NCBI GenBank assembly: GCA_029259775.1
Contig: JAJDEN010000020.1
Location: forward strand, 78,846-142,845
Direction of reading: 5' to 3'
DNA from: Planctomycetota bacterium
GTDB lineage: Bacteria; Planctomycetota; PLA2; JAEUHO01
DNA length: 64,000 nt
Positions 9,686-56,324 of the stretch are shown one piece after another (positions within the stretch are counted from its first letter, which is position 1; every line of letters starts with the position of its first letter). The notes below the pieces were generated by a model. The model did not search any database. It saw only the letters and a list, made by a program, of their open reading frames with translations, and was not told where the DNA came from. Position numbers and translations under genes: made by a program.

Positions 9686-9798
9686 CGCCTCAGTCTCGCG
9701 AGGAGGCGGCGCGCTGGCAACCCCGGAAACGTGCGTACCGAGGCCGGACCCTCGCCTTGTGCCTGGTTCCTTCCTAGGCTCCGGAGGGAGGCATCGAC

Positions 9799-10278
9799 AT
9801 GCAAGCGGATGAGCCAGCGGCGAAGAAGAAGGCCGCCAGGAAGTCGGCACCGGTCGCAGCGAACGATGCCGCCAAGCCGAAGCTGCTCTCAGGCGGAAAC
9901 CCTCAAGTCGCGAAGGCCGACGGCGACGCCCCCGTGCAGATCTACATCGCAGCCATGCCGGGCTGGAAACGCGACGTCGGACGTGGCCTCGATGCGCTCA
10001 TCGCGCGCACCGTTCCCAACGTCCGCAAGGCCGTGCGATGGAACACGCCCTTCTATGGCATCGAGGGGCAGGGCTGGTTCCTCGCCTACCACTGCTTCAC
10101 GAAGTACCTCAAGGTGACCTTCTTCCAGGGTACGTCCCTGCGCCCCGTCCCGCCCGTCGCGTCCAAGCAAGAGAACGTGCGCTACCTGCACATCCACGAG
10201 GACGACGAGTTCGACGAGGAACTCGTGACGTGCTGGATTCAACAGGCCTCCGAGCTACCCGGCGAACGGTGCTTCTAG
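9799..10278 (+). CDS. DUF1801 (YdhG-like) domain protein
   Basis: Strong RBS GGAGGGAGG. Conserved YdhG-like core (VRWNTPFYGIEGQGWFLAYHCFTKYLKVTFF). Confidence 0.7.
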   Translation: MQADEPAAKKKAARKSAPVAANDAAKPKLLSGGNPQVAKADGDAPVQIYIAAMPGWKRDVGRGLDALIARTVPNVRKAVRWNTPFYGIEGQGWFLAYHCFTKYLKVTFFQGTSLRPVPPVASKQENVRYLHIHEDDEFDEELVTCWIQQASELPGERCF

Positions 10279-42903: not shown

Positions 42904-43407
42904 TCAGGCCTCAGGCGGGGCGTGGCTCTCGTCGGTGACGGGTCCGACGACCACGGCGACCAGATGCGGCAGGGCCCTGGCGACGAAGCGAAAGCACGCG
43001 ACGGCGCCCTGGGGGCGCCCTGGCAGGTTCACGACGACCGCGCGGCCCGCGATGACCCCCGCCGTCGCCCGGCTGCCAAGGGCGTGGATCGTGCTGTCGA
43101 CGCTCCGGCGGCGCATCTCCTCGCCGAGACCGGGGATCTCGAAATCAACGACTTCGAGGGTTGCCTCGGGCGTCACATCCCGAGGGCCGACACCCGTCCC
43201 GCCCGTCGTGAGGACGAGCGGCGCGAGGCCCGCGGATGCGAGGAGGGCGGCCGCGATGGCCGCCCGCTCATCCGCCACCGTGCGCACGTCGACCAGATCG
43301 AACCCGGCCTCGGTCAGCACCGGTCGCAGCAGGTCGGCCGTCTCGTCGGCGCGCTCGCCGGACGCGGCTCGATCGCTGATCACGAGGAGGCTCGTCTTCA
43401 CGCTCAT
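42904..43407 (-). CDS. moaB: Molybdenum cofactor biosynthesis protein (MoaB/MogA family)
   Basis: LLVISDRAASGERADETADLL...LVLTTGGTGVGPRDVTPEA. RBS GAGGGGG. ATGA overlap with the upstream gene. Confidence 0.75.
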   Translation of the reverse strand: MSVKTSLLVISDRAASGERADETADLLRPVLTEAGFDLVDVRTVADERAAIAAALLASAGLAPLVLTTGGTGVGPRDVTPEATLEVVDFEIPGLGEEMRRRSVDSTIHALGSRATAGVIAGRAVVVNLPGRPQGAVACFRFVARALPHLVAVVVGPVTDESHAPPEA

Positions 43408-44657
43408 ACCACCCCCTCGGGATGCACGCCCTCCTGGGCGAGGATGCCCAGCACCCATTCGTACTCGCGCGCCAGCGCCTCGACGAGGTCGAAGCCCGAG
43501 CCGGCCGCGCGCTCCGCGTCAGGCAGCACGTCCCACGTGTAGGTCTCGATCTCGATGTGATCGGTCAGGCCGTCGCGGGCGGTGGCACGCAGCGCCCGCT
43601 CCAGATCGGGCTGCGTCGTGCGCAGGGGCCCCACGCCTTCGTGCCGGAACACCGGCACGTGGAAGTGGCTGCGCCACGGGCCGCGCGCCTGCCAGACCGG
43701 ATCGTCAAGCACCACGCCGAGGTCGTCAGCGACGTGCACGACGCCGTCCTCGTCCCGGGCGCTCACCTGATGCAGGTACACGGGCTCGTCGAACGCGGCG
43801 AGGGCCGCGCGCCCGTCCGCGTCGGTCGGATCGGGAAGCTCGAGCGCGCACGAAGCCTGCAGCTTCGCGACGGCGATGCCGTCGGCCGCGAGCGCCGCGA
43901 GGTTGGCCTCGACGTCTTCCCACTCGACGGCCTGGTGGCAGACGTCGTAGCAGACGCCGATGTGCGCCTTCAACTCGGGCGCGTCCGCCAACACGTCGGC
44001 GAGGGGCCCCGCGAAGAACGCGCGCAGCTCCGCGGTGGTCTCGAGCGTGCAGCCGGGCTCGGGCTCGATGCCCAGCGTGATGTGCTTGCCCGTGTTGCGT
44101 GCGGTCTGATGCAGCCCACGTAGTACGCCGAGGAGGTTGCGCGCGCAGGTGCGCTGCTCGTCGGCGCCGCCGCCCCAGCCCTTCCAGGAGAGCGGGGACG
44201 TGCTGAGCGAGAGGCGCTCGGCACCGGACGGCAGCAGCGCCAGCACGGTGGCGAAGGCCTGTGTGTAGGCCGCGCGCGGCAGCTCGGTCCACGCAGGCCT
44301 GTAGACCTCGTCCTTCAGCGGCTTGCCATGGAAGTCGCCGTGGACGAACGCGTTGCCGCTGAAGATGTGCAGATCGTGCGCTTCGAGGAGATCAGGCAGA
44401 CCGCCCAGGCCCCCGGGGTCGCGCAGCAGCTCGGCGATGCCCGCCCAGCTCCAGCGCACCGCGAGGCCGAAGGGGCCCTCGACGCCCAGCCGCTGGCGTA
44501 GCGGCAGCACGGTGTCGTGGATCGCGTCGCGCGTGGAGGCGGCGTCGCCGCCCGGGTGGACGTTCATCCCGTAGGCGAGCCAGAGGGTCCGGCCGTCGGA
44601 GGTGGTGAGGCGCACGGGCGGCAGCGTACCGCGAGCGCCCGCGTAGGATGCCTGCAT
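43404..44657 (-). CDS. Sugar phosphate isomerase/epimerase family (xylose-isomerase-like TIM barrel) protein; start uncertain
   Basis: TIM-barrel-like pattern (LWLAYGMNVHPGG, HITLGIEPEPG, IGVCYDVCHQAVEWED). The ATG at 44655-44657 overlaps the divergent ATG at 44656. Confidence 0.5.
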   Translation of the reverse strand: MQASYAGARGTLPPVRLTTSDGRTLWLAYGMNVHPGGDAASTRDAIHDTVLPLRQRLGVEGPFGLAVRWSWAGIAELLRDPGGLGGLPDLLEAHDLHIFSGNAFVHGDFHGKPLKDEVYRPAWTELPRAAYTQAFATVLALLPSGAERLSLSTSPLSWKGWGGGADEQRTCARNLLGVLRGLHQTARNTGKHITLGIEPEPGCTLETTAELRAFFAGPLADVLADAPELKAHIGVCYDVCHQAVEWEDVEANLAALAADGIAVAKLQASCALELPDPTDADGRAALAAFDEPVYLHQVSARDEDGVVHVADDLGVVLDDPVWQARGPWRSHFHVPVFRHEGVGPLRTTQPDLERALRATARDGLTDHIEIETYTWDVLPDAERAAGSGFDLVEALAREYEWVLGILAQEGVHPEGVV

Positions 44658-45627
44658 GCGCCGCCTCCTCCCGCTTCTGCTCTTGCTCCTCGCGGCCTGC
44701 GGCGACGAGCGCGCTGGAGGCCCCCCGCCGGACGAGCTGCCGGGCGATCCCGAGGAGGCGCTCGCCTGGGTGCGCGCAGCGGAGGATGACGACGCGGAGC
44801 TACGCCGACGCCTCGGCCTCTGGCGCTTCGACGGCGACTTCGAGTCCATGCCGGAGACGCAGCAAGCGGTGACGTGGCGCCTGCAGCTGGCGCTGCGTGC
44901 CGGCGACGTCGAGGCGGCCGCCGAGGACGTCGAGCTGCTGGAGGAACACTTCGACGGGCAAGGGGAACATCCAGAGGGACGCGAGTTCACGTCGGACGCG
45001 ATCCGCCTCGGTGTGTTCGAGGAGGCCTTGAACGAGGCGCGGCGGCGCAGCGAGGGCCCGAAGCCGGACGCGAGGGCCGCGCGCAGCGCCCTGGACGTCG
45101 CACGGGCACAGCTGCACGACGGCGACGTCGAAGACCTCGCCCGGCTGGCGGGCATCTCCGCGTGGGTCCGGAGCGGCCGGGGCGTCAAGCTCCTCACGCG
45201 GCTCGGCTCCGACGCCCCCATCAGCCCCAAGGTGGACGCCACCCTCGTCCTGATCGTGGACGACTTCAGCTTGGGCGAAGGCATGTTGACGGAGGTCTTG
45301 AAGCAGTGGACGCGTGACCACGCCGAGCGCCGCTTCGACCGCGTGCTGGTGCCGCTGCTGCGGGGTCAAGTGCGCATGGGCCTGCGCTTGGTCCCGGTGG
45401 AGGACGAGGCAGAGGAGCTGGCCTCGTTCGCGACGCGTGCGAAGGACATCGGCCTCGCGCAGGAGACGCCGATCCCGGCGACGGCCCTACGCAAGCTCGG
45501 CCTCGACGTCGGGGACGCGGCCATCCTCCTGCTGGACCGCCAGGGCCGCATCGCGGCGCGCCTCTCGGGTCGCGGGCTCGACCTGCGCACGCTCGAGCCC
45601 GTACTCCAGAAGCTCCTCACGCGCTGA
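44656..45627 (+). CDS. Hypothetical lipoprotein
   Basis: Signal plus lipobox MRRLLPLLLLLLAACGDE. Acidic helical protein. Confidence 0.55.
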   Translation: MRRLLPLLLLLLAACGDERAGGPPPDELPGDPEEALAWVRAAEDDDAELRRRLGLWRFDGDFESMPETQQAVTWRLQLALRAGDVEAAAEDVELLEEHFDGQGEHPEGREFTSDAIRLGVFEEALNEARRRSEGPKPDARAARSALDVARAQLHDGDVEDLARLAGISAWVRSGRGVKLLTRLGSDAPISPKVDATLVLIVDDFSLGEGMLTEVLKQWTRDHAERRFDRVLVPLLRGQVRMGLRLVPVEDEAEELASFATRAKDIGLAQETPIPATALRKLGLDVGDAAILLLDRQGRIAARLSGRGLDLRTLEPVLQKLLTR

Positions 45628-45669
45628 ACGCGGGGGACGCAGGGCCTTGCCCCGGCACCTGGGTCACGT

Positions 45670-45750
45670 GGGCGGCCACAAGGGCCGCCCCTACCCGTAA
45701 GGGCGCACGACAGAGGCAGCGTCCCGGGCGGCCACAAGGGCCGCCCCTAC
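45670..45750. repeat. Palindromic double-hairpin intergenic element, copy 1: two GGGCGGCC-ACAAG-GGCCGCCC hairpins flanking a ~35-nt CCGTAAGGGCGCACGACAGAGGCAGCGTCCC spacer
   Basis: Read from the sequence. A near-identical copy lies at 51241..51321 with arm changes that preserve pairing. Confidence 0.7.
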
Positions 45751-45814
45751 ATCGGGCCTTGTCCCGTCCTGGCGCCACATGTGGTTCAATTCCGAACCTG
45801 GCAGCCGCTGGCGA

Positions 45815-46957
45815 CTAGAGCTTGAAGGTGAGGCCGGCGAAGCCACCAAAGTCGATCGTGGCCTGCTGGTCCTCGAGGTTCTCGGTGAACCCGATCTCGA
45901 ACTCGATACGCTCGCTGATGTCGGCCTTCATCGCCACGTTGATGTAGGCGCTGATGCCCGGGTAGGCGGCGAGATTCTTGACCAGGCGGCTCGCCGCGTT
46001 GACCTCGATGATGAAGCTGTGGCTCTGGTTCCACGCGAACTCGAGCGCCACGAAGCCCTGGCCACGCACCGACTCGTACTCGATGCCATCGAGGGAGGTG
46101 TCGCTGAACCATGTGCCGCCGAGGCCCGCGTACAGGTCCCAGCGATGCCCGAGCTGCTTCGCCACCACGAACTGCAAGCCGACGTCGACACCGCCGCTGT
46201 CGTACGGATCCGTGCCGGTCGGCAGCGCGAGACGGGTGATCACCGAGCCGCGCCAGTCCGAGCGGCAGCAGGGCTGGATCACGTTCCAGTGCGCCTCGAG
46301 CTCGATGTTGCCGAGGCCGACGCCGCGCTTGTCGTCCCACGAGATCGCGTTGAACGCGTCGTCCCGCCCGTTGACGAAGTAGGAGTCGTTGGTGAAGAAC
46401 GGGCGGCCGTTGTCGAGGAACCCGAGCGGTTCGGTCAGCTCGTGGAACCAGTCGATGGGACCGTCCATGAAGCCGGCACCGCGCCACTGGAGCGGCACGC
46501 GGATCCCGACGCTCAGGCGCGGGTAGAGGCCGTAGCGGAGGTTGAGCTCGGTCGTCTGATGCTCGCCGTCGACGATGAAGCGACGGTCGGCGGGCGTGGG
46601 ACCGATGTTGCTCTGGTTCCAGCCGAAGTCGTTGCCCCGGTCGACGTGGAACTTCACGATCCACGAGCGGTAGGGCAGGGGATCCGGCGCACTCGCCGGC
46701 AGGGTCAGCTTGGGCTGCGCGAGGATCCACTCGTCCCGGATCTCGCTCGGACCCTTCGGCGCCCACGCGTCGCGCAGGATCTCGTAGCGCCCAGGCCGGG
46801 GCTGGCGCGTCAGACGCGGCTGCCGGACGGTGACCTGGTCGGCCCGCGCCCCGGCGGGCACGGCGATGCTCGTCGGACGCAGGTCCTGCGCGACGGCCTC
46901 GGCGGTGGTGAGTGCGCCATGCAGAATGCAGGCAACGATGGCGAACGCAGTACGCAT
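45815..46957 (-). CDS. Putative outer-membrane beta-barrel protein
   Basis: Signal peptide MRTAFAIVACILHGALTTAEAVA. Alternating amphipathic beta-strand pattern. Aromatic-rich C-terminus (FAGLTFKL). Confidence 0.55.
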   Translation of the reverse strand: MRTAFAIVACILHGALTTAEAVAQDLRPTSIAVPAGARADQVTVRQPRLTRQPRPGRYEILRDAWAPKGPSEIRDEWILAQPKLTLPASAPDPLPYRSWIVKFHVDRGNDFGWNQSNIGPTPADRRFIVDGEHQTTELNLRYGLYPRLSVGIRVPLQWRGAGFMDGPIDWFHELTEPLGFLDNGRPFFTNDSYFVNGRDDAFNAISWDDKRGVGLGNIELEAHWNVIQPCCRSDWRGSVITRLALPTGTDPYDSGGVDVGLQFVVAKQLGHRWDLYAGLGGTWFSDTSLDGIEYESVRGQGFVALEFAWNQSHSFIIEVNAASRLVKNLAAYPGISAYINVAMKADISERIEFEIGFTENLEDQQATIDFGGFAGLTFKL

Positions 46958-47021
46958 GGCTGGGTGGATCCCTCCGGGGCGGACTCTAGCAAGGAATTGC
47001 CCGGAACTGGCGCCAGGCCCG

Positions 47022-49757
47022 CTATCCAACGTCGCGCCCCGGACGCGGGTCCCGGCGCCAGACGTTGCGCATGAGGCGACGGCGCTCCCGGGGATCGGAC
47101 GCGGCGCGGGCCAGGGTGCGCATGCCGCGGCGGGCAGCGAAGCGGTGACCGACCGCGCGACCGTCGTCGCCCACGCCGCGGAAGACGCGCGCCAGGACGT
47201 CATGCAGGCGCACGTCGTCGGCTCGGTTACGGCGTGTGACCTCGAGCAGCGAGGAAGCCGCGACCGCGGCCGCCCGTGCTTCTTCGAGGCGTCCGGCCGT
47301 CCGGAGCGCGTCGGCCAGGTGCGCGTAGCACGTCGCGCGTAGATCGACGGGCAAGTGTGTGTCGGCACCGAGCAGCTCGAATCCGGCGCACGCCTCCTCC
47401 ACGCGCCCCGCCGCCATGTGCAGGCGCGCGGCCGCCATGCGCCCGACAGCCTTCTGGGGTCCGACGGGGAGGATGTCGCGCGCACGGCCGGCGTCGCCAG
47501 ACCGCAAGCTCGCGTCCACGAGCGCGGCGCGGGCGCGATCGGCCTCCTCTTCGAAGCCGGCACTGCGAAGATCGCGCTCGCAGCGCACGAGCAGATGATC
47601 TGCGCCGGGCACGCCGGCGCGGAGGTCGGCGCGCGCCAGGACGGCGGCGGCCTTGACGCGCCCGAGCGCCGTGGACGCGAGGCCTGCCGCCATCTCCGCG
47701 TGGTGGCGCTCGCGCAGCAGGTCGCCGCAGCCTCGGAAGGCGGAAGCCAAGGCCAGGTGGATGCGCGGCAGCAATCGGCTTGCGCGGCTGGACTCCGCTG
47801 CGGCCAGGGCAACGCGCAGGCGATCTGCGGCGCGGTCGTAGTCGTCGAGCCACATGAGCGTCCGGCCCGCGAGCAAGTTCGCCTCGGCCGTACCCCGCGC
47901 GTCGCCGAGCAGACGCAAGAGGTTGCCCGCACGCTGCAACGGCTCGAGCGCCGCGGCCAGACGGCCGTGCCGGATCTCGCTGGAACCGAGCGCGAGAAGC
48001 AGCTCCCCCGCCGCATGGACATCTCCGTGCATGAGGCGGAGCCGCACGGCACGGCGCCGATGCGACGCGGCCGCACGCGGTCGATCGTCCGCCGTGGCAC
48101 AGGCTGCGAGCCCCTCGTGCCAGCGGGCGCTGCGCTCCAGATCGCCAGGTGCGCAGGTCGGTGCGGCGTGGCGCCACGCGCGACGGGCGGCGGCCGGATC
48201 ACCAGCGCTCAGGTCGAGTTTCGCGAGCAGGGCCCAGGCGTCGAAGTGGATGGCGTCCTGTTGGACGGGAAAGCACGGTAGGCCCTCCGCGAGGAGGGTG
48301 CGCGCCTCGTCGGCCTGCCTATGACGGGCCTGGGCAAGCAGGTGCGCGGCGGACGGCGTCGCCGACAGCGCGGCGGGGCCGAGCAACGCGCGGGCCGCGG
48401 ACTCGCGGCCCGCATGCCAGAGGCGGTGCGCGACGTGCGCGACGCCGGCATCCCCGGCCGACAACCGCGCGGCCGCCTCCGCGAGCACGTCGAGATGCCA
48501 GCCCTCGGCCGTGCGCAGGACGGGAAGCTGCTCGAGGCACGCGGCGAGGCCCTCGCCGACGGCGCCGGGCTCGCTCCCCATCGCAACGAGCCGCAACCGG
48601 CGCACGGCATCGTCGCGATGCGCGCCGCCACGGACGACGCGCCGGGTCCATGCCGCCTCGAGACGCGCGCGCGCACCCGAGCGCGCGGCCGGCGACATGC
48701 GCTCACGGTAGGCACGCTGCTTCGCGCGGGTGGCGAAGTAGCGAGCGGACGCCAGACCACCGCGTGCGGCCACGGCCTCGTCGAGCAGGGCGCGGGCGAA
48801 GGACCGTTTCACGCCCGCCGCGTCGGCGAGCAGGGCTACGTCGTCCGGGGTGCCCTGGACGGCGGCCACTTCGAGCACGCGACGGGCCGGCGCGCCCTGC
48901 GTCCGGATCCATTGCAGGAACGCGCCGCCGGTGCGGCGTCCGTCCGGCCAGGTCTCGGGAGCGCGCGTGACGACGACGCTGCGACCGCGAAGCTCGAGTT
49001 CGCCGGCTCGCGCCATGCGGCGGACGGCCTCGATGACGCGCCCGGGCAGTCCATCGCACGTCTTCGTGAGCGCCGGCGCCAGACGCCGAGCGGTGGCCGG
49101 ATGGCGCAGCCAACGTCGGAGCAGGAGCTCGACCTGCGTCACGCCGAGCGGCTCGACTTCCCACGCGATCTGCGAGACGACACGGGAGGACCCGTCGGTG
49201 GCGCCCGCGATGACGCCGAAGCCATGTCCTTGGGCCGAGGGCATGAGGACGGCGAGCGTGGCCTCGTCGAGGTCATGCAGGTCGTCGACGAGCACCGGGC
49301 CGATCGGGGCGAGGCGCTCGACCAGGGAACGCACGAGCCGCGGGTCGAGTGCGGAGGCGCCGCGCCGGCTCGGACGGTCGCCCAGCCACGCAGCCAACAC
49401 GAGGATCTCGTCGCGAGCGAGGGGGTGCACGGCGCGCAGCGCACGCTCGAGGGCAGGCCCGGCCGGCTGGGGGAACACGCGTCGCAACAGCTCGTGGAGC
49501 GGGGCCATCGGGATGCGTGCGTCGGGCGCCGGGTGGATACGCAGGAGTCGCGGCGCGCCGGTCTCGCGGATCAACTGGTCGGCCTCGTCGAGCATGCGTG
49601 AGATGCCCGCGCCGGAGGGCCCCCAGAGCGTGATCCATCCCGCACCGCGCTGCCGCACCCGCAGCTGCGTCTTGAGACGTCCGAGCAGCGGCTCACGCCC
49701 TGTCAGGGGGACCGCGTGGCGGTACTCGAACCAGTCCGGGGCGCCTGAGGGTTGCAC
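47022..49757 (-). CDS. STAND-type AAA+ ATPase with C-terminal TPR/helical repeats (AfsR/MalT-like regulator)
   Basis: Walker A WGPSGAGISRML; hhhhDDLHDLD Walker B. Long Ala/Leu/Arg-rich TPR-like region. Confidence 0.7.
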   Translation of the reverse strand: MQPSGAPDWFEYRHAVPLTGREPLLGRLKTQLRVRQRGAGWITLWGPSGAGISRMLDEADQLIRETGAPRLLRIHPAPDARIPMAPLHELLRRVFPQPAGPALERALRAVHPLARDEILVLAAWLGDRPSRRGASALDPRLVRSLVERLAPIGPVLVDDLHDLDEATLAVLMPSAQGHGFGVIAGATDGSSRVVSQIAWEVEPLGVTQVELLLRRWLRHPATARRLAPALTKTCDGLPGRVIEAVRRMARAGELELRGRSVVVTRAPETWPDGRRTGGAFLQWIRTQGAPARRVLEVAAVQGTPDDVALLADAAGVKRSFARALLDEAVAARGGLASARYFATRAKQRAYRERMSPAARSGARARLEAAWTRRVVRGGAHRDDAVRRLRLVAMGSEPGAVGEGLAACLEQLPVLRTAEGWHLDVLAEAAARLSAGDAGVAHVAHRLWHAGRESAARALLGPAALSATPSAAHLLAQARHRQADEARTLLAEGLPCFPVQQDAIHFDAWALLAKLDLSAGDPAAARRAWRHAAPTCAPGDLERSARWHEGLAACATADDRPRAAASHRRRAVRLRLMHGDVHAAGELLLALGSSEIRHGRLAAALEPLQRAGNLLRLLGDARGTAEANLLAGRTLMWLDDYDRAADRLRVALAAAESSRASRLLPRIHLALASAFRGCGDLLRERHHAEMAAGLASTALGRVKAAAVLARADLRAGVPGADHLLVRCERDLRSAGFEEEADRARAALVDASLRSGDAGRARDILPVGPQKAVGRMAAARLHMAAGRVEEACAGFELLGADTHLPVDLRATCYAHLADALRTAGRLEEARAAAVAASSLLEVTRRNRADDVRLHDVLARVFRGVGDDGRAVGHRFAARRGMRTLARAASDPRERRRLMRNVWRRDPRPGRDVG

Positions 49758-49838
49758 GGTCCCCTATCGGCACTTCCCGCGCATGCCCCAAGGCCGAAGC
49801 ATCCCCCGGCGAGAGGTCCATTGGAAGGCCTCCAGGGC

Positions 49839-51005
49839 CTAGAGCGCACCGTGGAACAGAGGGCCGCGGACGGTCTCCTCGGTCTGCATCGTGGAGGCCA
49901 CATGATCCACGATGTCGGCGGCCGCCGAGGGCCGCCCCATGTGGCGGGCGCGGCGAGCCAGAGTGGCCCGCAGATCGGGGTCGTCCAGCAGCTGGACGGT
50001 CCGGCAGCGAACCTCTTCCGGGGTCAGGGCGCGGAAGCCCGCGCGCGCCTCGACGACAGCATCTGCGTTGCGCTCTTCCTGCCCGGGAATCGAGCCGGAG
50101 ATCACCATCGGCCGGCCGGCTGCCATGCACTCCGAGGTGCTCATGCCGCCGCTCTTGGAGATGACGACGTCGGCGACGGCCATGAGGTCGCGCACGTCGT
50201 GGACAAAGCCCAGAGGCAGCAGGACCGCGCCCTCCGGCCGAGGCAAGCGGGCGATGCGTCGGCGCAGCCGCTCATTGCGGCCGCACACGGCGATGACCTG
50301 GATGTCGCGGCGGTCGCGCCACAGACCGAGGATGGAGCGGCCCATCGGGCCGGCAGCGAAGCCCCCGCTCAAGAACAGCACCGTGGGCCGGTCCGGGTCC
50401 AGCCCATAGCGCACGCGCACGCGGGCGAGGTCCGGTTGGGTGGAGAAGTCGGGCCGGACGGGGATGCCCGTGACGTCGATCCGCTTCTCATCGACTCCGT
50501 AGGTGAGAACCATGCGTGTCTTCACCAGGTCGCTCGCCACGTAGTAGTGGTCGACCTCGGGGTAGTACCAGTTGCGGTGCGTGTCGTGATCGGTGATCAC
50601 CGCATGCAACCGAGTGTCGATCTTGCCCTTGCGCAGGGCCCGCCCCAGCAGCTCGGGGGCAAGAAAGTGCGTGCACAGCACCACGTCGGGCTTGCGCTGC
50701 TTGACCAGGCGCACGAAGCGCCTGCCGGCGATGACCGTGATGGCGTGGGCGAGGCGTGACGTCTTCTCGTTCGTGATGTCGTAGAGATGGCGCCAGAGCA
50801 GCGGGTGCTTGTCGACGAGGCGGATGTAGCCCCAGCGGTAGACGTGCTTGAAGACGTTGTTCGTCAGCGCGACGCAGTCCACATGGGTCGTCTCGATCTC
50901 GGGATGCCGCAGCTTCAGCGCGGCGGCCACGGCCTTGCCGGCCATCGTGTGACCGTGCCCCGCCGAGCCGCTGACCACGAGCACACGAGGATTCGAGGGG
51001 GACAC
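49839..51005 (-). CDS. Glycosyltransferase family 28 (monogalactosyldiacylglycerol synthase / MurG-like)
   Basis: VLVVSGSAGHGHTMAGKAV N-terminus. C-terminal GT-B fold motifs (VISKSGGMSTSECMAAGRPMV). Confidence 0.8.
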   Translation of the reverse strand: MSPSNPRVLVVSGSAGHGHTMAGKAVAAALKLRHPEIETTHVDCVALTNNVFKHVYRWGYIRLVDKHPLLWRHLYDITNEKTSRLAHAITVIAGRRFVRLVKQRKPDVVLCTHFLAPELLGRALRKGKIDTRLHAVITDHDTHRNWYYPEVDHYYVASDLVKTRMVLTYGVDEKRIDVTGIPVRPDFSTQPDLARVRVRYGLDPDRPTVLFLSGGFAAGPMGRSILGLWRDRRDIQVIAVCGRNERLRRRIARLPRPEGAVLLPLGFVHDVRDLMAVADVVISKSGGMSTSECMAAGRPMVISGSIPGQEERNADAVVEARAGFRALTPEEVRCRTVQLLDDPDLRATLARRARHMGRPSAAADIVDHVASTMQTEETVRGPLFHGAL

Positions 51006-51240
51006 GACGGCTCCGGTTGGCGCACTCCGGCTGGGGCGGGGCGCGGGATGCTACCACGTTACCTACGGCTCACATGCCTAGCAGCGGCCTCCTTCCCTGC
51101 GGCTCGGTCGACCGTCGTCAGCACCCGCGTAGGGGCGCCCCTCGTGGGCGCCCACACCAGCCTGATGTTCGGCCTTGGGCCATGGCGTGACGCATCCGGC
51201 TGCTCACCTGCGCCGGGAAGATGGAACGCCGTCCGCGGAA

Positions 51241-51321
51241 GGGCGACCACAAGGGTCGCCCCTACCCGTAAGGGCACGCGACGGAGGGGGCGTCCCGGGC
51301 GACCACAAGGGTCGCCCCTAC
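51241..51321. repeat. Palindromic double-hairpin intergenic element, copy 2: GGGCGACC-ACAAG-GGTCGCCC x2, immediately 3' of nrdJ
   Basis: Same architecture as 45670..45750. The G>A change in the left arm is matched by C>T in the right arm. Confidence 0.7.
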
Positions 51322-51379
51322 ACGCCCCGAGCCACCGATCGCCCCCGGCATCAAGCTCAGCGCCCTCCCAGTGCGCCGG

Positions 51380-54300
51380 CTACGAGCAGCCGGAGGTGGC
51401 TCCGCAGGTCTCACACTTCTCACACGTGCCGTTGCGCACCATGGTGAACGAACCGCAGTCGGGGCAGGCGTCGCCGGTGTAGCCCTGCAGACGCGCCTTC
51501 TCGGCCTCGGTCATCGCCACGCTTCCGCGGTAGCTGAACCGCGCTTCGCGCACCTCGGAGCGGGTCTGGACCGTGACGTTCTCGGCCGACGGCGAGGCCG
51601 GCTGCGAGAGCGAGTAGCCGGTGCTCTTGGGACGCAGGGTCTCGCTCGCAAACACGCCTTTCGACGTACCCGCGCCATGCTCGACGCCGTGGCCGTTGCC
51701 GTTGCCATTCCCGCCTCCAGCGCCGCTTCCGCTGGCATGTGCCTCGCCGGACGCGCTCCCGTTGGACCCGCCCCCGTCAGCCCCGCCCGCATCAGACCCG
51801 CCCGCATCAGACACGTCCTGGGTGACCGTGCGCTCCTCGACGAGCTCTTCGCTGTCGTACTCGGGCGTGGCCTCGCCGGCGTCCGCATCGCCACGGACCG
51901 CGTCGGACGTGAGGTCCTCGGGCGTGACCTGCGCGAGATCCTTGCGGTCCAGGTAGGACACAGCCAGCTCGCGGAAGATGTAGTCGATGATCGACGTGGA
52001 CATCTTGATCCGGTCGTTGCCCTTGACGATGCCGTTGGGCTCGAAGCGCGTGAACGTGTAGGCGTCCACGAACTCCTCGAGCGGCACGCCGTACTGCAGG
52101 CCGATCGAGACGGCGATCGCGAAGCAGTTCATCAAGCTCCGGAAGGCAGCGCCCTCCTTGTGCATGTCGATGAAGACCTCTCCGATGTGGCCATCGGTGT
52201 ACTCGCCCGTGCGCAGGTACACCTTGTGCCCGCCGATCATGGCCTTCTGCGTGTACCCGCCGCGACGCTGGGGCATCCGGCGACGCTTGGACAGGTAGCG
52301 GACGACAACGCGCTCGCGGATCTTGTTCGCCGCGGCGCGGACGCGCGTGTCGAGGCGATCGCTGACGAGATCTTCGGGCCCGGTCGCATCGGGGCCGGTG
52401 GCGTTGGGATTGCCACCCTCGGCCTCCTCGAGCAGCTCGGCGAGATCGAGCTCGGTCGTCGTGTTGAGCGGCTGGCTCAGCTTGCTGCCGTCGCGGTAGA
52501 GCGCCATCGCCTTGATCATCTTGCCCCAGGAGAGGCGGTAGGCGTCGGTGACGTCCTCCACGCTCGCCTCGTGCGGCATGTTGATCGTCTTGCTGATCGC
52601 GCCGGAGATGAACGGCTGCGCGGCCGCCATCTGATTGATGTGGCCGACGGCCGAGATCGAGCGCTGGCCGTAGCGGCCGCACTTGTTGGCGCAGTCGAAG
52701 ACGGGGAGATGTTCGTCCTTGAGGCCCGGCGCGCCCTCGATGGTCATCGTGCCGCAGATGGCGTCGTTGGCCTCGTGCACCTGGTCCCGATCGAACCCGA
52801 GGAAGCCCAGCAGGTCGAAGCTCGGATCCTCATAGATGTGCGTCGGCACCTTCAGCTCGTCGCGCAGGAAGTCGTCGCCCACGGTGAAGCGGTTGATGAC
52901 GAACGAGATGTCGAACGCGGACGGCAACTGCGCTTCGATCCGGTCGATGATCTCGGACGTGAAGCCCTTGACCCGCAGCGTCACCTCGTTGATCTGCGGC
53001 GCGCCCCTGAGCGACCCGGTGCCCTTGACGTACCGGACGATCTCCTCGGTCTGCTTCTCGTCGTAGCCGAGGTTGCGCAGCGCGATCGGGACCGAGCGGT
53101 TGATGATCCGGAAGTAGCCGCCTCCGGCGAGCTTCTTGAACTTGACCAACGCGAAGTCCGGCTCGATGCCGGTCGTGTCGCAGTCCATGACCAGACCGAT
53201 CGTGCCCGTGGGCGCGAGGACACTGACCTGGGCGTTGCGGTAGCCGTGGCGCTCGCCCTGCTCGACGGCGCGATCCCAAGCGTCACGCGCCGCGGCGACG
53301 AGGTACGACGGGCAGTGCTCGGGGTCGATGCCCATGGGCGTGACCGTGAGCCCCTCGTACTCGGCGGCCGGCGCGTCGTAGGCCGCGCGACGGTGGTTGC
53401 GCATGACGCGCATCATCGACGAGGCGTTGCGCTTGTGACGCGCGAACGGCCCGAGAGCCTCGGCCAACTCGGCGGAGGTGGCGTAGGCCTCGCCCGTCAG
53501 GATCGCCGTGATGGAGCCGTTCCACGAGCGGCCTTCCGGCGAGTCGTAGGGCACACCGAGCTGCATGAGCAGCGAACCGAGGTTCGCGTAGCCGAGACCG
53601 AGCGTGCGGTAGTCCCACGACAGGCGCGCGATGCGCTTGCTCGGGTACTGCGCCATCAGGACGGAGATCTCGAGCACCGTCGTCCAGATGCGAACGGCGT
53701 GGCGGAAGCCCTCGACGTCGAACGACCCCTCGTCCGCGTTGAAGAACGTCACGAGGTTGAGCGAGGCCAGATTGCAGGCCGTGTCATCGAGGAACATGTA
53801 CTCGGAGCACGGGTTGGACGCGTTGATGCGCCCGTCCTTCGGGCACGTGTGCCACTCGTTGATCGTCGTGTCGAACTGGACACCCGGGTCGGCGCAGGCC
53901 CACGCGCTGTAGGCGATGCGCTCCCAGAGGTCACGAGCCCGCAGGGTGCGCGCGATCTGGCGCTCGCCCTGGGGGCCGGGCGTGCGCAGGTAGAGGTGCC
54001 ACTCGCGGTCGTCTTCGACAGCCTTCATGAAGTCGTTGTCGAGACGAACGGAGTTGTTCGAGTTCTGGCCGGAGACGGTGACGTAGGACTCGCTGTCCCA
54101 GTCGGTGCTGTACGTCGGGATGTCGATGCCGGAGAAGCCCTGCTGCGCGAGGGAGACGCAGCGCATCACGTAGTTCATCGGGACGAGCGCGTCACGGGCC
54201 GCCTTGATGGCGACGCGCAGGCGGCTGTTCTGCTTGGGGTCGAAGCGGGCGTCCTCATCGCTGCAGTCCGCGCGCAGCAGGGGATCGGCGCAGGCGCCAA

Positions 54301-55216
54301 AGACGCCGTTGAGCGACTTCTCGAGCATGCGCGAGCCAGACACCAGCGCGGCGACCTTCTGCTCCTCGCGGGACTTCCAGTCGACGAACTCCTCGATGTC
54401 GGGGTGGTCGACGTCGAGGCAGACCATCTTGGCCGCACGACGGGTCGTGCCGCCCGACTTGATGGCGCCGGCTGCGCGGTCGCCGATCTTGAGGAACGAC
54501 ATGAGGCCGGAGGACTTGCCGCCGCCCGAGAGGGGCTCGCCCTCGCCGCGCAGGGCGCTGAAGTTCGTGCCGGTCCCCGAGCCGTACTTGAAGAGACGCG
54601 CCTCACGGACCCAGAGGTCCATGATGCCGCCTTCGCCCACGAGGTCGTCGCCGACGCTCTGGATGAAGCAGGCGTGCGGCTGGGGCCGCTCGTAGGCCGA
54701 CTTGCTCACGTTCAGCCGGCCCGTCTCGGGATCGACGTAGCTGTGGCCCTGGGCCGGACCGTCGATGCCGTAGGCAAAGTGCAGGCCTGTGTTGAACCAC
54801 TGCGGGCTGTTCGGCGCGCAGCGCTGGTCAGCGAGCATGCGGCACAGCTCGTCGTAGAACGCCGACGCGTCCTCCTCGCCGTCGAAGTAGCCGTAGCGCT
54901 CGCCCCAGTGGGTCCAGCAGCCGGCCAGGCGGTGGAACACCTGCCGGGCATCGGTCTCGCCGCCGCAGACCTGCTCACCGCCCGAGTCCAGGACGGGGTC
55001 GCCCGACGGATCGGTCTGGGGCACGCCGGCGCGGCGGAAATACTTCTGGGCCAGCACGTCGGTGGCGACCGAGGACCAGGTGGCCGGGACGCTCACGTCG
55101 TCGAGGTGAAAGACGACCGTGCCGTCCGGATTGCGGATCTCCGAGGTCCTGGAGCTCCACTCGATCCCCTCGTAGGGGTCCTGCCCGGCGGTCGTGAATC
55201 GACGACTGAACTTCAT
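51380..55216 (-). CDS. nrdJ: Adenosylcobalamin-dependent ribonucleoside-triphosphate/diphosphate reductase, class II, with a low-complexity Gly/Ser/Asn insert and C-terminal zinc ribbon
   Basis: RBS AGAGG at the [20 protein letters not shown] start. Class II RNR blocks throughout. C-terminal CPDCGS...CEKCETCG. Confidence 0.85.
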
Positions 55217-56324
55217 ACGTGCCTCTCTCGCAGCGCGCACACGCGCGCGATCTCTCAAATAGCCGTGTCGAAATGAACGTGTTGTCTGCCTGGGCGTGCC
55301 GCGCCGACTGACATGACGTCAGGCGGCAAGACATCCCTGGAACGTCTCTCCCCAGGAGGATCTCTCCCCAGGAGGAGTCGTGCCCCTGGCGATCTGCATT
55401 GGATCCGCCCAGGCGGCGGCCCAGCGCGCCCCCTCCAGGCTCGCTCGTTGCCGTACCCGTCGCATCCCGTCGCACATCGCCACGGCACTGCTTCGCAGCA
55501 CTGCACTGCTTCGCAGCACTCAGGCGCGCGTCACGGCAACGCCCGACAGCCCGCCGCAGGCAGCGCCTCGGAGCCCGCCGCCGTTGCGGCCGGCCTCCCG
55601 GGACTCCCGCCTCCCGGGACTCCCGCCTCTCGGGACCTCCCGGGGCCTTCCCCGAAGTCGTCCCGAAGGTGCTGCCAAACGTGCCGTCGGGCGATCCCGA
55701 CCAACGCAACCCATCTGGTGCCAACCCCAACAGGTTGTGGTCCCATGGGGGTGACTCCACAGCATGTCGTAGCACGACCGCCGTGAGAGCGCACGAAGAA
55801 GTTCCGTCGCCAAACCGGATGGCAGCCACTCTCGGCCGCGTCACCAGCTCCACGAGCCCGCCTCACGAACCCGCCTCACGAAGGACAGGCGCCCGCGACC
55901 GGGTTCCTGTGCTGTGCGACGCGCTTCCGCAACGGATCCCTCCGCAACGAGACGCATCCCTCCGCGAAGAGACGGATCCCTCCGCGGCGAGACGTAACCG
56001 CTTCACCCCCCAAGACACGCCTGTCCGGGGTCGAAGAAGTTACGCCCGGGGTGGGACAGTCCCGGGCGGGGTAGGGATCCCGTCGCCGGCGTCCGTGCGG
56101 CAGTGAGGAGGCAGCCTGACGTGCCCCCAAAGCGTCCAAATCCACACCGGCCTGCGCCGCTTCTTGCGGCCGTCTGAAGCCAGTCTGGCGCGCTCGCGAC
56201 GAGCCATCGACGTCCAAGCGCCACCAATGGGGCTGCGCGGGATGACAGACGCCGACAACCGGAATCGCGACGCGATTTGGCGCGAACCAACCGTCCGCCT
56301 TCGGGGTTCGTATAGATAGACGAA

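Follow-up and report, generated by a model that had tools for sequence, protein, structure and literature searches.

Two sites in the window, the whole 64-kb stretch of Planctomycetota DNA analysed here, carry a double-hairpin element whose two copies differ by matched substitutions in the arms of their stems. One copy lies directly downstream of nrdJ, and the locus raises the question of whether the element is a structured RNA or terminator that serves this gene, with its arms kept complementary by local selection, or a dispersed repeat that belongs to a larger family. REPs are small selfish palindromic repeats mobilised by RAYT transposases. We consider it very probable that the element is a cluster of GTAG-tagged REPs and that its repeats are cognate to a single RAYT/TnpA_REP clade of HuH tyrosine transposases. 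On this reading, the matched arm changes are usual REP sub-family variation and the element is an ordinary member of its class, not a nrdJ-specific regulator.

Five hairpins at three intergenic positions

In the preliminary description, copy 2 was read as GGGCGACC-ACAAG-GGTCGCCC in both of its hairpins, with a G>A change in the 5' arm relative to copy 1 matched by C>T in the 3' arm, and pairing therefore kept. The reading is correct at 51241-51261 and 51297-51317, each followed by CTAC, and alignment of the 81-nt units confirms the matched changes. Copy 1 consists of GGGCGGCC-ACAAG-GGCCGCCC-CTAC twice (45670-45694 and 45726-45750), and the start-to-start spacing of the hairpins is 56 nt in both copies (Table 1). 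The strand that carries GTAG is the minus strand for the dimer hairpins and the plus strand for a solo REP at 51129-51153. Read on this strand, all five window copies begin with GTAG, followed by a stem of 8 perfect base pairs that closes a 5-nt loop, CTYGT; in hairpin 2a, the end of which lies 59 nt past the nrdJ stop codon, the stem is GGGCGACC/GGTCGCCC and the loop CTTGT. The solo REP had been overlooked in the preliminary description and shows C-G at the variable stem pair, a third compensated state. It is 86% complementary to hairpins 2a and 2b across 28 nt, and the inverted pair (51129 on the plus strand, 51265 on the minus strand) can fold into a long hairpin.

Table 1. Positions of the repeat units, neighbouring genes and hairpins of relatives (window positions unless a locus is named)
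Feature	Position	Strand	Details
Copy 2, head-to-tail hairpin dimer with spacer	51241-51321	-	
REP hairpin 2a	51297-51321	-	43.9 bits (covariance model); GTAG tag at 51321-51318
Copy-2 dimer spacer, 31 nt	51266-51296	-	5 of 31 positions differ from the copy-1 spacer
REP hairpin 2b	51241-51265	-	identical to 2a; 43.9 bits (covariance model)
REP hairpin 1a of copy 1	45726-45750	-	GTAG-GGGCGGCC-CTTGT-GGCCGCCC; 44.2 bits (covariance model)
Copy-1 spacer, 31 nt	45695-45725	-	
REP hairpin 1b of copy 1	45670-45694	-	covariance model match
Solo REP, inverted orientation	51129-51153	+	GTAG-GGGCGCCC-CTCGT-GGGCGCCC; 40.5 bits (covariance model)
nrdJ, class II ribonucleotide reductase	51380-55258	-	Pfam PF02867, PF08471, PF12637
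MGDG-synthase/GT28-like glycosyltransferase gene	49839-51005	-	Pfam
Hairpins of relative L123	L123:830-860 and L123:6380-6410		GCGTGG-CAAC-CCACGC-TAC and GCGTGG-CAGA-CCACGC-CAC
Hairpin of relative L124	L124:~9780-9810		GGCGGTGC-TTTG-GCACCGCC-TAC

The covariance model detects exactly five copies in the window, at 40-44 bits, and the next match scores 19 bits. These five copies occupy three intergenic positions within 64 kb. The pattern GGGCGNCCN5GGNCGCCC is present 6 times in the window, against 0.24 times expected from shuffles. When folded as DNA, the 91-nt units (the dimer with 5-nt flanks) reach about -28 kcal/mol (z = -3.3 to -4.2), and the solo hairpin, folded as a 35-nt segment, reaches about -12 kcal/mol. 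A palindrome at 43245-43265 (GGGCGGCC-GCGAT-GGCCGCCC) was considered as a REP and rejected: it lacks the GTAG tag, lies in a coding region and scores 19 bits, and is probably a chance GC-rich match. More speculatively, the plus strand of the copy-2 spacer, which reads GTAA-GGGCACGC...GCGTCCC, may contain a decayed REP of opposite orientation; the covariance model detects none in this spacer and the fold support is weak.

The 81-nt units of copy 1 and copy 2 are 88.9% identical and lie in unrelated flanks. Their similarity stops exactly at the REP edges, the unit being bounded by GTAG on one side and by the hairpin foot on the other. The G>A and C>T changes, present in both hairpins, are the only differences between the stems, and the 31-nt spacers differ at five scattered positions. 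Judging by its sequence, the unit was probably duplicated in one piece from one window site to the other. The composite was not found elsewhere, either in a spacer-anchored scan of metagenome contigs (CCCTACCCGTAAGGGCNCNCGAC, 0 matches) or in a BLAST comparison of spacers and flanks with every retrieved locus, which gave no match outside the window.

Copy 2 had been placed immediately 3' of nrdJ and upstream of a GT28 gene, and the Pfam annotation agrees: on the transcribed strand nrdJ is upstream of the copy and the glycosyltransferase gene downstream. Copy 1 separates the 3' ends of a convergent gene pair, namely a gene at 44656-45627 on the plus strand and a DUF3187 gene on the minus strand. 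The best named homologues of the glycosyltransferase come from Planctomycetota MAGs, and two relatives (L123, GCA_024639415.1, and L124) have the same gene order as the window, with a glycosyltransferase that is 79% identical. The window's REP was not found at either orthologous intergenic site of these relatives, and in L124 the gap that corresponds to the copy-1 site is only 14 nt long. Each relative has a different small hairpin between nrdJ and the glycosyltransferase gene, in which a GT[AG]G-type tag overlaps the stem, and L123 has a small GT[AG]G-type hairpin at the copy-1 site too. This suggests either repeated colonisation of the gaps around nrdJ, the glycosyltransferase gene and the DUF3187 gene or local turnover of REP-like elements; intergenic gaps at these loci seem to gather lineage-specific REP-like hairpins repeatedly. 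Between the glycosyltransferase and DUF3187 genes lies a 911-aa ORF (47022-49757, minus strand) that has no Pfam match; it is conserved in L123, with length and position unchanged, and the gene found there in L124 encodes 608 aa.

A hairpin class that accompanies one RAYT clade

We scanned one genome per species for the tagged pattern GTAGGGGCGNCCN5GGNCGCCC and found it in at least 120 stretches of genomes that belong to well over a dozen phyla. According to the record titles, the matches listed include Chloroflexota, Acidobacteriota, several proteobacterial classes, Clostridia and Bacteroidota, as well as Planctomycetota, Verrucomicrobiota, Armatimonadota, Gemmatimonadota, Spirochaetia and others. 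The genomes listed have several hairpin copies per 8-kb block, and the flanks of these loci contain 122 additional perfect GTAG hairpins with other stems. Among the genome matches listed, 273 perfect hairpins are preceded by GTAG, compared with 2-32 for control tetranucleotides. Adjacent hairpins in these matches form head-to-tail pairs in 25 of 116 cases and inverted dimers in 91, with variable spacing. The general form of the class is GTAG, GGGC, four variable bases, a loop (often CTYGY), four complementary bases and GCCC. Viral contigs carry it as well: at least 120 stretches from IMG/VR (L211-L330, median GC 62%) contain at least 152 matches to the 25-nt hairpin pattern, and no RAYT-like ORF was found in these stretches among the matches listed. 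A literal literature search for GTAGGGGCG returned only unrelated primer matches.

A HuH/Y1 protein is encoded in three blocks (L016, L059 and L110) among the at least 120 genome stretches listed. The first query was an E. coli RAYT sequence, used as a lead only, and every match was re-tested with Pfam and NCBIfam. REP_Tyr_transpos is the best NCBIfam match of the L016 and L059 proteins (81.7 bits for L016, cutoff 80), and JGI names homologues of the L016 protein 'REP element-mobilizing transposase RayT'. L016 is a classical REPtron with hairpin pairs on both sides of the RAYT gene. In L059 the RAYT gene lies beside GTAG hairpins, and in L110 a RAYT-like ORF is located at the edge of the 8-kb block, about 6.6 kb from the hairpin. 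The exact 25-mer of window positions 51129-51153 occurs both beside and inside the gene of an Omnitrophota RAYT homologue (L127/L128).

As an unbiased set, we used 80 metagenome loci (L131-L210) picked solely by RAYT protein similarity. Perfect hairpins with a GT[AG]G tag are present in 74 of the 80, and 211 of the 276 hairpins in these loci start with GGGC, compared with 3-40 for control tags. In many of the protein-picked loci the hairpins lie about 240-360 nt inside the RAYT gene, in agreement with peptide inserts in the protein alignment. 'Double-foot' GTAG...CTAC forms are found too, in both the genome and the protein-picked loci. The hairpins of the window are thereby shown to belong to a class that accompanies one RAYT clade, and we infer RAYT mobilisation in the source genome. 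Separately, one protein-picked locus (L159:62-566) carries at least eight GTAG-GGGCGAAC-CTTRT-GTTCGCCC hairpins, repeated head to tail every 68-69 nt and adjoined by a RAYT gene, which shows that direct tandem REP arrays do occur in the GTAG-GGGC class.

The class resembles published systems in most respects. Twenty-four families of GTAG REPs are on record, in which stems vary by complementary changes, G·T pairs occur and dimers take HH, TT and HT forms; their reported hosts are Proteobacteria, Cyanobacteria, Chloroflexi and the PVC group including Planctomycetes (PMC3733652). Like these families, including SMAG of Stenotrophomonas maltophilia (Di Nocera, De Gregorio & Rocco 2013, PMC3733652), the elements studied here have an unpaired GTAG at the stem foot, a GC-rich stem of 6-9 bp, a short loop, sub-families that arise by complementary changes, frequent G·T pairs, and intergenic singletons, dimers and clusters. 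Unlike them, the window dimer is head-to-tail, an arrangement described as 'absent or under-represented' in GTAG REP families (PMC3733652), and its spacer is conserved between copies. No matching consensus was found in the supplements of PMC3733652, and the stem could not be assigned on that basis to any of the 24 numbered families.

REPs flank tnpA_REP genes and insert into them, and in subclass 2.4 they are found inside the gene (Quentin et al. 2018, PMC6006769). A RAYT clade flanked by GTAG-GGGC hairpins is comparable to the REPtrons with 5' GT[AG]G REPs of that study, and the gene-internal hairpins match subclass 2.4, a likeness by resemblance and not by phylogeny; sites that fit it are L127:3265-3344, L128:408-487 and many of L131-L210. 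Unlike in REPtrons, no RAYT or Y1_Tnp-like ORF was found within the 64-kb window. In REPINs and BIMEs, short REP hairpins are amplified together as composite units, for which a single-copy RAYT is the proposed mobiliser (PMC3116915, PMC2817692). The nrdJ site holds an inverted REP pair and in this resembles the Pseudomonas and E. coli elements (Bertels & Rainey 2011; Nunvar et al. 2010). In contrast to REPINs, the unit common to both window sites is a pair of direct REPs and not an inverted doublet; the inverted partner is present at the nrdJ site only, and the 87-nt spacer that goes with it has no second copy. In stem and loop sequence the window REPs show no relation to the REP families of Pseudomonas and E. 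coli.

A head-to-tail composite whose spacer is conserved is a less common arrangement. It counts against the REP reading that head-to-tail dimers are in the minority (25 of the 116 adjacent pairs listed), that the window holds no RAYT gene, and also that the copies seen number five, so that a high genomic copy number is only presumed. Of wider interest is a single REP hairpin class with near-identical 25-mers that spans many phyla and viral contigs and tracks one RAYT clade, together with a head-to-tail unit that appears to be copied as a block. Both the breadth of the class and the block copying fit the published patchy, horizontally spread RAYT/REP systems, and overturn nothing.

Covariation of the stem

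The variable stem pair takes the same few states across the class. Among the 154 genome copies listed it is A-T in 97, G-C in 26, C-G in 17 and T-A in 1, and the non-Watson-Crick cases are T·G (6), G·T (4) and mismatches (3). Among the 152 viral-contig copies listed it is A-T in 72, G-C in 57, C-G in 13 and T-A in 1, the remainder being 6 wobbles and 3 mismatches. Watson-Crick pairing at this position is therefore kept in 141 of 154 and 143 of 152 of the copies listed, respectively.

We also examined an anchored set, in which the tag, the loop and the outermost pair were fixed and copies meeting the search pattern were left out. All seven inner positions are paired at 40 of the 51 sites of this set, and six are paired at 4 more. 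In the 47 distinct anchored sequences 91.0% of cells are paired, compared with 69.5 ± 1.5% after shuffling, and both-side changes occur at seven of the eight stem pairs. The covariation score is 0.515, against 0.149 for shuffled sequences and 0.085-0.173 with the partner slid. The protein-picked RAYT loci provide 94 distinct stems, which are 93.9% Watson-Crick (57% when shuffled, maximum 61.6%), and their stem positions 5-8 show all four Watson-Crick pair types.

The matched changes between copy 1 and copy 2 had been taken as covariation evidence for selection on the structure. That conclusion stands at the level of the family, where covariation across the collected copies supports selection on the hairpin and where hundreds of further copies keep pairing instead of accumulating uncompensated stem changes. 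The contrast between the two window copies is, by itself, weak evidence. The A-T, G-C and C-G states are old sub-family variants common across phyla, and each unit has the same state in both of its hairpins, so the four differences are not independent events. What distinguishes the hairpins of copy 1 from those of copy 2 goes back to copying, conversion or cassette replacement, and it is selection or templated correction that keeps the hairpins perfect. More generally, when two copies of a repeat differ by compensatory changes, these may be sub-family variants inherited by a mobile element, and caution is due before local selection is read from them.

On the GTAG strand, G·T outnumbers A·C by 10:1 among the genome copies listed and by 17:1 in the anchored set, and in the protein-picked set the ratio is 36:14, a modest bias. 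This excess points to folding of the GTAG strand specifically. Furthermore, because 91 of the 116 adjacent pairs listed are inverted, one transcript cannot hold both partners in the GTAG sense. The strand bias and the inverted dimers therefore favour recognition of single-stranded DNA by RAYT over an RNA role, and the hairpin is most likely selected as a single-stranded DNA substrate of RAYT, not as RNA.

In the mechanism that we propose, the GTAG strand would fold into the hairpin when it is single-stranded, for example at the replication fork. RAYT would recognise the GTAG guide, the conserved stem foot and the shape of the hairpin, and by cleaving and rejoining it would copy REP units to new intergenic sites. 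If the shape is read and the inner-stem sequence is not, the inner pairs would drift through compensated states and give rise to the G-C, A-T and C-G sub-families. At the nrdJ site, the third, inverted REP creates a BIME/REPIN-like arrangement. By analogy with E. coli REPs, secondary effects are possible: the two GC-rich hairpins on the nrdJ mRNA could block 3' exonucleases, or could attenuate read-through into the glycosyltransferase gene.

Alternative explanations

The position of copy 2 could also suggest a nrdJ-linked cis-regulatory RNA or terminator that evolved in place, the covariation being the result of selection on that RNA. With the GTAG strand as the sense strand of nrdJ, both hairpins would be part of the mRNA, 59 nt past the stop codon; folding of the region is better than that of shuffled sequences (z = -3.6), pairs of the G·U type are tolerated, and roles in mRNA stabilisation and transcription attenuation are known for E. 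coli REPs (background in PMC6006769). However, a terminator scan of 45400-51600 found no terminator-like sites on either strand, and a T/U tract is missing: next after the hairpins come GGGACGCC and TTCCGCGG on the transcribed minus strand and CTACCCGT and CTACACGC on the plus strand. A promoter scan found no sites, and Rfam 15 gave no match in the whole window at the gathering threshold and none at E <= 5 in 45400-51600. Nor does the distribution of the element follow nrdJ, as the 81-nt unit is also present between unrelated convergent genes, the solo REP (51129) lies antisense to nrdJ, 25-mers of identical sequence occur beside unrelated genes in many phyla, and the relatives that share the gene order (L123 and L124) are without this REP at both sites. 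The terminator or nrdJ-linked structured RNA implied by the preliminary description is improbable for a hairpin class that is the cognate repeat of a RAYT clade, and the hairpins are better annotated as REP/BIME repeats than as a nrdJ terminator or a new structured RNA. A double-stranded palindromic site for a dimeric DNA-binding protein would also mimic compensatory substitutions, since its symmetric half-sites change together, and IHF and gyrase bind REP/BIME clusters (background in PMC6006769). We rejected this reading as very improbable: the asymmetric GTAG tag and the non-palindromic loop CTTGT are conserved, dozens of different inner stems coexist, and G·T exceeds A·C on one strand specifically, a bias not expected from duplex recognition. 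A degenerate two-repeat CRISPR-like array would fit the 56-nt period and the sizes of the repeat (25-28 nt) and spacer (31 nt), but its chances are negligible and it was likewise rejected, given that the 'spacer' is common to both loci with 5 of 31 positions differing, that the repeats also occur singly and inverted, that adjacent pairs across the genomes listed are mostly inverted dimers with variable spacing, and that the associated gene is a RAYT and not cas.

A more serious alternative, possible but not probable, is that the compensated state was produced by mutation or copying and not by selection, either through templated correction of a quasi-palindrome or through conversion or replacement by a copy of another sub-family, so that both arms and both hairpins are rewritten together. 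The same variant is present in both hairpins of each unit, which amounts to four concerted transitions with no other hairpin change, against five scattered differences in the 31-nt spacer, and A-T, G-C and C-G pre-exist as sub-families across phyla. Such a process does not explain pairing of about 94% over 94 distinct stems in unrelated genomes, and it leaves the tolerance of G·T above A·C unexplained, so that some constraint on the hairpin is still needed. Rather unlikely, in our view, is the proposal that the 81-nt composite is a replicating 'direct-repeat REPIN' mobilised by the RAYT of this Planctomycetota lineage, in which the joint step of both hairpins from G-C to A-T would be a RAYT-mediated cassette swap or conversion and not a point mutation; given the presence of the class in many phyla and in viral contigs, such cassettes could move horizontally.

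A minor observation concerns three other loci (L004, L025 and L108), in which the loop and 3' arm are partly re-duplicated directly 3' of the hairpins (e.g., ...GGTCGCCC-tccc-CCTCGTGGTCGCCC). This re-duplication looks like the product of slippage or template switching at the hairpin.
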